In this document: piece by piece, positions 18,701 through 21,700 of the stretch | Position numbering within the stretch: position 1 is the stretch's first letter | Layout of the letters: every line of letters starts with the position of its first letter | Source of the DNA: Escherichia coli O157:H7 | Lineage (GTDB): Bacteria > Pseudomonadota > Gammaproteobacteria > Enterobacterales > Enterobacteriaceae | Strand: one strand, 5' to 3' | Assembly: GCF_013167455.1 (NCBI RefSeq) | Contig: NZ_CP038328.1 | DNA length: 64,000 nucleotides | Program-made: the position numbers

Positions 18701-21700
18701 TCTTCCGCGCAGGGCGGTGGTCTCGTCACCAGTGGTTCAGACGCGACAATCAATTTTTCTGGCACGGCAGCGCAACGAAACAGCATCTTTTCCGGCGGTT
18801 CTTATGGTGCCTCGGCCCAGACGGCAACGGCTGTTATCAACATGCAAAATACCGATATTACGGTTGATCGTAATGGCAGTCTGGCGCTGGGTTTGTGGGC
18901 GCTCAGCGGCGGTAGAATAACCGGAGACAGTTTGGCTATCACCGGCGCGGCAGGAGCCAGGGGGATTTATGCCATGACCAACAGCCAGATCGACCTCACG
19001 AGCGATCTGGTCATTGATATGAGTACACCCGACCAGATGGCCATCGCAACGCAACATGACGATGGTTATGCCGCCAGCCGCATCAACGCCTCGGGTCGTA
19101 TGCTTATCAACGGTAGCGTTCTTTCCAAAGGTGGGCTAATCAATCTGGATATGCACCCTGGGTCGGTTTGGACAGGTTCCTCCCTCAGCGATAATGTCAA
19201 TGGCGGGAAACTGGACGTTGCAATGAATAACAGCGTCTGGAACGTAACAAGTAATTCTAATCTCGACACGCTGGCGCTGAGCCATTCAACTGTCGATTTT
19301 GCCAGCCACGGGTCAACTGCCGGCACATTTACCACATTAAACGTAGAGAACCTGAGCGGTAACAGTACCTTTATTATGCGTGCTGATGTTGTTGGCGAGG
19401 GTAATGGCGTTAAGCCCTGGGCCTGATGTGGTACGTTCCATGTCTCCCGTTTCATCAGCTTATTGCATCGCTCCCAGGAGGTTGCAATTAAGGGAGATAT
19501 GCCCCGACCATCGTTGTTAAAAGCGCCACTCATATCCCGCATCCCTTATGACAAAAGGTGTTCCGGCTCGCAATTTTAAGTATTAATACACGTAAAAGTT
19601 TCAATATGGAACATTCATTAAAGCATATGTTTCACTATGAAACATAATTTGGGCTAATTTTCTTTTCCCTTGCCTGATGCACAATGGATTCATCGGCAGT
19701 CAGTGGTCGCCGTGTCGTTGAACATCATCCATGCCCTACCGTAATTGCTGGAGCAAAATAATGAAAAAATTGATCAATGATGTGCAAGACGTACTGGACG
19801 AACAACTGGCAGGACTGGCGAAAGCGCATCCATCGCTGACACTGCATCAGGATCCGGTGTATGTCACCCGAGCTGATGCCCCTGTTGCAGGAAAAGTCGC
19901 CCTGCTGTCGGGTGGCGGCAGCGGACACGAGCCGATGCACTGTGGTTATATCGGTCAGGGGATGCTTTCGGGGGCCTGTCCGGGCGAAATTTTCACCTCA
20001 CCGACGCCCGATAAAATCTTTGAATGCGCCATGCAAGTTGATGGCGGCGAAGGTGTACTGTTGATTATCAAAAATTACACCGGCGATATTCTTAACTTTG
20101 AAACAGCGACCGAGTTACTGCACGATAGCGGCGTAAAAGTGACCACTGTGGTCATTGATGACGACGTTGCAGTAAAAGACAGTCTTTATACCGCCGGGCG
20201 GCGCGGCGTTGCCAACACCGTATTAATTGAAAAACTCGTAGGCGCAGCGGCGGAGCGTGGCGACTCACTGGACGCCTGTGCGGAACTGGGGCGTAAGTTG
20301 AATAATCAAGGCCACTCAATAGGTATCGCTCTCGGTGCCTGTACCGTTCCTGCCGCGGGCAAACCTTCTTTTACCCTGGCGGATAATGAGATGGAGTTTG
20401 GCGTCGGCATTCATGGTGAGCCGGGTATTGACCGTCGCCCCTTCTCTTCCCTTGATCAAACCGTCGATGAAATGTTCGACACCCTGCTGGAAAATGGCTC
20501 ATACCATCGCACTTTGCGTTTCTGGGATTATCAACAAGGCAGTTGGCAGGAAGAACCACAAACCAAACAACCGCTCCAGTCTGGCGACGGGGTGATTGCG
20601 CTGGTTAACAATCTTGGCGCAACTCCACTTTCTGAGCTGTACGGCGTCTATAACCGCCTGACCACACGTTGCCAGCAAGCGGGATTGACTATCGAGCGTA
20701 ATTTAATTGGCGCGTACTGCACCTCACTGGATATGACCGGTTTCTCAATCACTTTACTGAAAGTTGATGACGAAACGCTGGCACTCTGGGACGCCCCGGT
20801 CCACACCCCGGCCCTTAACTGGGGTAAATAAGGAGAAAGCAATGTCACTGAGCAGAACTCAAATTGTTAACTGGCTCACTCGTTGTGGCGATATTTTCAA
20901 CACCGAGAGCGAGTATCTTACCGGACTGGATCGCGAGATTGGCGACGCTGACCACGGGCTAAATATGAACCGAGGCTTTAGCAAAGTGGTGGAAAAACTC
21001 CCTGCTATTGCAGATAAAGATATCGGTTTCATTCTCAAGAATACCGGTATGACGCTGCTTTCCTGCGTCGGTGGTGCCAGTGGTCCGCTGTTCGGTACCT
21101 TCTTTATCCGCGCCGCACAGGCGACCCAGGCACGGCAAAGCCTGACGCTGGAAGAGCTTTATCAGATGTTCCGCGATGGCGCGGACGGCGTAATCAGTCG
21201 CGGGAAAGCCGAACCTGGCGATAAAACCATGTGTGATGTGTGGGTGCCGGTGGTGGAATCGTTACGTCAGTCCAGCGAGCAAAATCTCTCTGTTCCGGCG
21301 GCGCTCGAAGCTGCCAGTAGCATCGCCGAATTCGCTGCACAAAGTACGATTACGATGCAAGCCCGCAAAGGCCGCGCCAGTTATCTCGGTGAACGCAGTA
21401 TTGGTCACCAGGATCCCGGCGCAACCTCGGTGATGTTTATGATGCAAATGTTGGCGTTAGCCGCAAAAGAGTAAGGAATTGGTGATGGTAAACCTGGTCA
21501 TAGTTTCACATAGCAGCCGACTGGGAGAAGGTGTCGGTGAATTAGCCCGTCAGATGTTAATGAGTGATAATTGTAAAATCGCCATTGCTGCGGGAATTGA
21601 CGATCCACAAAATCCCATTGGTACCGATGCCGTCAAAGTGATGGAGGCCATCGAATCTGTTGCTGATGCCGACCATGTGCTGGTCATGATGGATATGGGT

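Follow-up and report, generated by a model that had tools for sequence, protein, structure and literature searches.

Paired predicted DhaR boxes upstream of dhaK in an Escherichia coli O157:H7 genome with a truncated dhaR gene

NtrC-type enhancers are composed of 17-bp dyads in which two 6-bp half-sites (consensus TGCACC) are set 5 bp apart, and the boxes recognised by TyrR have the form TGTAAA-N6-TTTACA. Dyads of the NtrC type are paired about three helical turns apart, lie at least 100 bp upstream of the promoter, and serve sigma-54 promoters. TyrR is an AAA+/HTH_8-type protein that works at sigma-70 promoters through adjacent strong and weak boxes, regulates its own gene, and takes amino acids and ATP as effectors, whereas the effectors of DhaR are the protein partners DhaL and DhaK. 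DhaR was placed in the TyrR family by Shimada/Ishihama. PMC8046923 states that DhaR activates dhaKLM, that disruption of dhaR abolishes induction, and that the Sakai strain carries dhaKLM without dhaR, and PMC10084136 attributes the finding of sigma-70 dependence to Bachler et al. (2005).

The window considered here is the whole 64,000-nt stretch of E. coli O157:H7 DNA (GCF_013167455.1, contig NZ_CP038328.1). An inverted repeat with perfect 9-bp arms and a 3-nt centre, TATGTTTCA-cta-TGAAACATA, was located at 19626-19646. The initial annotation had described a perfect 8-bp inverted repeat at 19627-19645, which is present (ATGTTTCAcTAtGAAACAT, that is, ATGTTTCA-cta-TGAAACAT) as the inner part of the longer palindrome, and its placement about 115 bp before the dhaK start was borne out, as the end of the palindrome is 115 bp from the dhaK ATG at 19761. 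The weaker related pair that it had listed at 19598-19614 (GTTTCAATATGGAACAT) was also found, with 76% complementarity to the palindrome, and is best read as the 19-mer AAGTTTCAATATGGAACAT at 19596-19614. Both sites fitted a single 19-bp dyad, ATGTTYC-N5-GRAACAT, the palindrome with no mismatches and the 19-mer with one, and their centres (19636 and 19605) were 31 bp apart. Together they occupied 19596-19645 within the 227-bp dhaR-dhaK spacer, 115-165 bp 5' of the dhaK ATG. The description of this spacer as a truncated divergent region had to be corrected, since the 227 bp are complete and identical to K-12 and the deletion begins inside dhaR. The two sites are as follows:

19596-19614, unstranded: predicted distal DhaR box (Site 1), AAGTTTCAATATGGAACAT, one mismatch to the dyad pattern; centre 72 bp from the dhaR ATG
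19627-19645, unstranded: predicted proximal DhaR box (Site 2), ATGTTTCACTATGAAACAT, perfect match to ATGTTYC-N5-GRAACAT; centre about -56 from the predicted dhaK start

Comparison with the described systems placed the locus closest to the E. coli K-12 dhaKLM promoter, for which the spacer DNA is identical and the target operon the same, and which is reportedly of the sigma-70 type (Bachler et al. 2005), with a DhaR lacking GAFTGA; K-12 has dhaR, whereas the regulator gene is deleted in the present genome. The resemblance to an NtrC-type enhancer lies in the HTH_8 and Sigma54_activat family shared with DhaR and in the layout of half-site-N5-half-site dyads, the dha boxes being paired 31-32 bp apart on one face of the helix. 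Unlike such an enhancer, the dha boxes have no sigma-54 promoter, DhaR has no GAFTGA, the half-site GTTYCA differs from that of NtrC, and the boxes would lie close to the promoter (about -56 and -87, from the predicted start) rather than at least 100 bp upstream. TyrR is the nearer analogy, as it shares with DhaR the protein type, the use of sigma-70 promoters, the adjacent strong and weak boxes and autoregulation, although its box sequence and spacing differ from those of the dha boxes. In the DhaR-controlled dha regulon of Klebsiella/Citrobacter, which leads from glycerol to 1,3-propanediol, K. pneumoniae has the same pairs at dhaK, at dhaD-dhaR and between the dhaT side and dhaB, whereas E. 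coli has the dhaK/dhaR pair only and no reductive branch.

When the 227-bp intergenic region was randomised under a Markov-1 model, about 1% of the resulting sequences contained a perfect repeat with 9-bp arms and a loop of up to 7 nt. Matches to ATGTTYC-N5-GRAACAT with at most one mismatch numbered two in the window against 0.10 expected, and a search of the full 64 kb at up to two mismatches gave no match beyond the two boxes. Because 0.87 matches per window are expected at up to two mismatches, the argument was based on the pairing and conservation of the boxes and not on the raw match count.

For phylogenetic footprinting, the dhaR-dhaK spacers of four Escherichia lineages were aligned with those of three Citrobacter genomes, the DhaR proteins of which are 71-73% identical. 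The proportions of invariant columns in this Escherichia-Citrobacter alignment were as follows:

19596-19614, distal box: 63%
19627-19645, proximal box: 58%
19692-19724, 33-bp block in the presumed dhaK leader: 79%
spacers flanking and between the boxes: 6-30%

Within the upstream half of the dhaR-dhaK region, no dyads were better conserved between Escherichia and Citrobacter than the two boxes, and variation inside the boxes was confined to positions 1-2, 8-12 and 18-19, with the core GTTYC/GRAAC retained. For the presumed dhaK leader, the search for conserved structure yielded no covariation and no more than four invariant pairs.

Orthologous promoters were then inspected for loss of the palindrome, a point raised by the initial annotation, and boxes were present in all seven genera. 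Pairs were identified in the Escherichia clades, Citrobacter, Pantoea, Rahnella, Klebsiella, [Enterobacter] lignolyticus and Serratia, in which the gene orders differ, and their spacing was 31 or 32 bp in 13 of 13 complete pairs (a count that includes the weak Klebsiella partner on the dhaB side, which was spotted by eye). The pattern ATGTTYC-N5-GRAACAT was fixed before four test loci, those of Serratia, Rahnella, Klebsiella and [Enterobacter] lignolyticus, were fetched. These later loci (55.7 kb) yielded nine matches at up to two mismatches, all nine in dha intergenic regions, where about 0.8 would be expected when scaled from the window expectation; over the total of 180.7 kb scanned, 27 of 27 such matches were in dha intergenic regions. 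The symmetrised consensus of the 27 non-redundant sites was AnGTTYCATWATGRAACnT, with G3, T5, A15 and C17 invariant.

Pantoea ananatis has two pairs, each with a spacing of 32 bp, one before dhaK and the other before a gldA-like gene that is followed by dhaR, and Rahnella has a single pair in the dhaK-dhaR spacer. In K. pneumoniae and [Enterobacter] lignolyticus, dhaK and dhaD-dhaR are each preceded by a pair, and K. pneumoniae carries in addition a box paired, at 31 bp, with a weaker one in the spacer between the dhaT-side operon and dhaB, which belongs to the 1,3-propanediol branch. The Serratia pair precedes a gldA-dhaKLM operon, dhaR there being convergent and not adjacent to the boxes. 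Judged from these sequences, the box pairs track dha operons and have no fixed neighbour gene. The locus of Martelella alba, with a DhaR homologue of 47% identity, had no convincing box and is not comparable. The consensus AnGTTYCATWATGRAACnT, applied to pairs 31-32 bp apart, could be used for annotating DhaR regulons, including the industrially relevant 1,3-propanediol genes of Klebsiella, and is also of use in the design of Dha-responsive reporters.

A scan of 19400-19800 with a consensus sigma-70 model found no promoter, and for this reason the promoter hexamers were assigned by conservation across genera. The elements around the boxes are as follows:

19566-19577, minus strand: conserved block CTCGCAATTTTA (CTCGCAAwTTT), reading TAAAATTGCGAG on the minus strand; 8 of 12 columns invariant (67%)
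19656-19666, plus strand: T-rich tract AATTTTCTTTT, 11 of 11 columns invariant between Escherichia and Citrobacter
19680-19685, plus strand: predicted -10 hexamer of the dhaK promoter, CACAAT, placed by conservation

The T-rich tract AATTTTCTTTT, which is found at an equal offset in Pantoea, Rahnella, Klebsiella and [Enterobacter] lignolyticus, probably covers the poor -35 region of the DhaR-dependent dhaK promoter, and further downstream GCACAAT (19679-19685) was invariant between Escherichia and Citrobacter in 7 of 7 columns. The six genera with a dhaK-facing pair showed the same order of proximal box, about 12 nt, T-rich tract, about 14 nt and -10-like hexamer, the last being CACAAT in E. 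coli and Citrobacter, CAGAAT in Klebsiella, Rahnella and [Enterobacter] lignolyticus, and GAGAAT in Pantoea. Promoters of gldA/dhaD, including that of the Serratia gldA-dhaKLM operon, have TAnAGT at an equal offset, and the distance from the end of the proximal box to the hexamer was 34-35 nt. Transcription of dhaK would accordingly be predicted to start near 19692, about 69 nt before the ATG, and the boxes would then be centred near -56 and -87. A weak -35 region together with the lack of a self-sufficient consensus promoter fits an activator-dependent sigma-70 promoter.

No GG-N10-GC core of a -24/-12 element was found on either strand of 19534-19760, and a GAFTGA-like motif was absent from the DhaR sequence, which carries HTH_8 (PF02954) and Sigma54_activat domains. 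Assignment of the boxes to the sigma-54 enhancer class was rejected on both counts, the spacer having no -24/-12 element and DhaR no GAFTGA. An HTH_8 protein without GAFTGA at a locus without a -24/-12 element agrees with the sigma-70 dependence given in PMC10084136.

On the dhaR side, the minus-strand TAAAAT within the block at 19566-19577 is a candidate dhaR -10 hexamer; YAAAAT is conserved on the minus strand from 19577 to 19572, and its use as the dhaR -10 would place the distal box near -40 of the dhaR promoter. DhaR reportedly represses its own gene. A distal box near -40 would suit such autorepression, and the distal box is likely to be the autorepression site. Shimada et al. gave TTGCGA-17-CATAAG as the dhaR hexamers, so that the TTGCGA of the same block serves as their dhaR -35 (PMC3946193).

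Several other explanations of the boxes and of the promoter were weighed. For dhaKLM, Shimada et al. gave the hexamers TTGAAC-16-CGTAAT (PMC3946193), which lie at 19718-19745 and with which the boxes would still be DhaR sites, DhaR then acting as a distant enhancer at about -116 and -147. TTGAAC is inside the strongly conserved block 19692-19724, but the resulting start (about 19752) would overlap the Shine-Dalgarno sequence GGAG (19750-19753), conservation of the CGTAAT hexamer does not extend to Citrobacter, and the fixed box-to-hexamer offset in seven genera belongs to CACAAT/CAGAAT. Because of the start on the Shine-Dalgarno sequence and the unconserved -10, these hexamers were ranked lower, and we consider the arrangement very unlikely. 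It is exceedingly improbable that the palindrome is a product of chance, or a structural element, for example a cruciform or AT-rich DNA or RNA prone to hairpin formation, bound by no sequence-specific protein. Chance alone does yield AT-rich palindromes in about 1% of such spacers, and a predicted fold pairs the two boxes with each other (-12 kcal/mol, z = -2.6); that fold, however, is a simple consequence of two copies of one dyad, the box region lies upstream of both predicted promoters, and the invariant core positions are kept across genera while the loop and flanks vary. A terminator or RNA element was rejected, as there was no terminator-like site and no Rfam match at an E-value of 1 or below.

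The dyads might instead be operators of another regulator that all E. coli have (for example the LysR-type YgfI/DhfA or YneJ/PtrR, NtrC, or GlpR, the glycerol-3-phosphate repressor), and would then not be orphaned in O157:H7. The half-site ATGTTCC may resemble the GlpR operator half-site, but the GlpR consensus is an even 20-bp palindrome with the half-site WATGTTCGWT, whereas the dha dyad is odd-centred and has C or T in place of the G of GlpR. Both YgfI/DhfA and YneJ/PtrR have been placed by ChIP-exo at the promoter of dhaK, genomic SELEX has located NtrC in the dhaK/dhaR spacer, and TTTCACTATGAAA is compatible with the loose LysR form T-N11-A. The DhfA site predicted by its authors, GATGCACAATGGATTC, is nevertheless at 19675-19690, 30 bp downstream of the palindrome, and is not conserved in Citrobacter, and the YneJ/PtrR authors found no PtrR motif at dhaK. 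DhfA (YgfI) was rejected as the box binder, its predicted site GATGCACAAtGGATTC mapping to these positions and off the palindrome. The boxes track dhaR-containing dha clusters over seven genera, including the 1,3-propanediol genes of Klebsiella, and neither DhfA nor PtrR would explain why they do so. Binding of the dyads by another regulator in place of DhaR was accordingly judged decidedly unlikely.

The palindrome is, very probably, the proximal and stronger of two DhaR boxes that together make up the activating element upstream of the sigma-70 promoter of dhaKLM. The occurrence of the pairs across genera and their constant distance to the T-rich tract and the -10-like hexamer point to DhaR as the likely binder, and the dyad symmetry (a 19-bp dyad with four invariant positions in 27 sites) suits a dimeric HTH_8 protein. 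An operator for the regulator of the operon had been suggested by the initial annotation, and the comparative evidence of conserved paired boxes at dha spacers supports the suggestion. Among the full texts searched, with the literal box sequence included, no paper giving a DhaR site was found. In the mechanism proposed, a DhaR dimer would occupy each dyad, making contact through its C-terminal HTH_8 domains; three helical turns separate the two dyads, and their centres would fall near -56 and -87 of a start predicted about 69 nt before the dhaK ATG. Engagement of the DhaR sensing domain by DhaL::ADP would then allow DhaR to aid RNA polymerase at the poor T-rich -35 region and the CACAAT -10 hexamer, and the distal box, adjoining or overlapping the divergent dhaR promoter, would probably mediate autorepression. 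After the deletion in the O157:H7 lineage, which left 40 dhaR codons, the boxes and both promoters would be intact yet unoccupied.

The deletion was delimited by comparison with K-12, and the features concerned are as follows:

19413-19414, unstranded: deletion junction, 3,136 bp lost relative to K-12
19414-19533, minus strand: dhaR remnant, first 40 codons (120 bp), with the ATG at 19533
19761-22903, plus strand: intact dhaK-dhaL-dhaM operon, from the annotation in strain CDC#03-98

The 3,136 bp lost comprise the 3' 1,237 bp of ycgV, a 99-bp spacer and dhaR nucleotides 121-1920, so that ycgV is joined to dhaR codon 40, and neither an IS element nor microhomology was found at the junction 19413|19414. 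The dhaR remnant reads into antisense ycgV as a chimeric ORF of 158 aa extending from 19542 to 19066. The 227-bp intergenic region (19534-19760) and the first 120 bp of dhaR are identical to K-12, and the boxes are therefore undecayed and there is no compensating promoter mutation. As the boxes are untouched and dhaR is cut to 40 codons, the boxes are intact but probably orphaned, which agrees with the conditional proposal of an orphan operator in the initial annotation. The dhaKLM operon should consequently be uninducible and expressed at a basal level in an O157:H7-type genome, as predicted from the sequence.

The box region was found in 5,383 complete E. coli genomes and the dhaR body in 5,247, and 138 of 5,426 carried the junction; these counts are compatible with there being no second dhaR in the deletion strains. 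Among the 60 matches listed, every serotyped strain with the junction was O157 (most of them O157:H7), and EDL933 and Sakai were included.

The biology is ordinary and essentially known: both regulator and target have been described, and loss of the gene has been reported before in this lineage. The probably orphaned DhaR boxes do not overturn current understanding. What is added is modest, namely a second box, a consensus and fixed geometry that hold across genera, precise end-points for the deletion, and a spacer shown not to be truncated. The boxes and the deletion provide a cis-regulatory account of why O157:H7 of the EDL933/Sakai type should not induce dihydroxyacetone kinase, and these strains would constitute a natural dhaR-null with a wild-type promoter. 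A reading that goes further is unlikely, and would involve either a fixed-geometry DhaR-box module or, in O157:H7, takeover of the boxes or expression of the chimeric ORF. As a module, dyads spaced at 31-32 bp, the proximal of which precedes the -10 hexamer by about 44 bp, may recur across Enterobacterales, including the 1,3-propanediol genes of Klebsiella, and through them an AAA+ enhancer-binding protein that has lost its sigma-54 contact may drive sigma-70 promoters; if this geometry is undescribed, it would offer a defined cis-element for studying an enhancer-binding protein rewired to sigma-70. In O157:H7, some other factor may have adopted the vacant boxes, or the 158-aa chimeric ORF may now be expressed from a derepressed dhaR promoter.

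Genes were annotated by way of strain CDC#03-98, which was 100% identical over the 1.5 kb tested. The local gene order is pth, ychF, truncated ycgV, the dhaR remnant, the 227-bp spacer, dhaK, dhaL, dhaM and treA, and the truncated ycgV autotransporter ORF occupies 17783-19426.

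The ycgV-dhaR deletion spans 3,136 bp and is clean at its junction (19413|19414), where neither an IS element nor microhomology was present. Among 5,426 complete E. coli genomes, 138 carry it, and it appears to mark the EDL933/Sakai-type lineage of O157:H7. An ORF that takes in the dhaR remnant is read through this region, and a conserved block lies within the spacer, before dhaK.

19066-19542, minus strand: chimeric ORF of 158 aa, consisting of DhaR residues 1-40 and ycgV-antisense sequence
19692-19724: conserved block TCGGCAGTCAGTGGTCGCCGTGTCGTTGAACAT, from the comparison of Escherichia with Citrobacter

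The dhaR promoter upstream of the chimeric ORF is intact, and has presumably been left without its autorepressor. In the conserved block, 26 of the 33 positions were invariant between Escherichia and Citrobacter, a higher conservation than that of the two predicted DhaR operator boxes (19596-19614 and 19627-19645). No fold was supported by covariation within the block, and no Rfam family matched it; it may belong functionally to the dhaK leader or act as a second promoter.

A site for DhfA (YgfI) was predicted at 19675-19690 (PMC9068703), where it overlaps the conserved CACAAT hexamer, the putative -10 element of the dhaK promoter, which is an odd position for an activator. In Citrobacter, only the GCACAAT core that the site has in common with the hexamer was conserved, and the remainder was not.

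A pair of DhaR boxes was also located in the Klebsiella pneumoniae dha locus (L035, own coordinates).

10656-10674 and 10687-10705: AAGTTTCATAGTGAAACTG and its weaker partner GTGTGCCAAATTGAAACGA, spaced 31 bp apart

This pair is situated between the dhaT-side operon and dhaB, and the 1,3-propanediol branch is therefore marked by the same boxes too. The DhaR half-site ATGTTCC of the operator boxes (19596-19645) is similar to the GlpR operator half-site, WATGTTCGWT, with a spacing that differs by one base. GlpR is a regulator in the neighbouring glycerol pathway, and the likeness between the motifs could possibly reflect cross-talk or common ancestry.

Of all perfect inverted repeats in the window, the longest was the 24-bp palindrome AAATCCACGCAATTGCGTGGATTT (16997-17020), approximately 60 bp 3' of the ychF stop codon. 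In the treA region (about 23220-24907), a single gene would be expected, but two ORFs are present, at 23220-23588 and 23450-24907, which overlap each other. The annotation of strain CDC#03-98, which is 100% identical over the tested 1.5 kb, gives treA as frameshifted.
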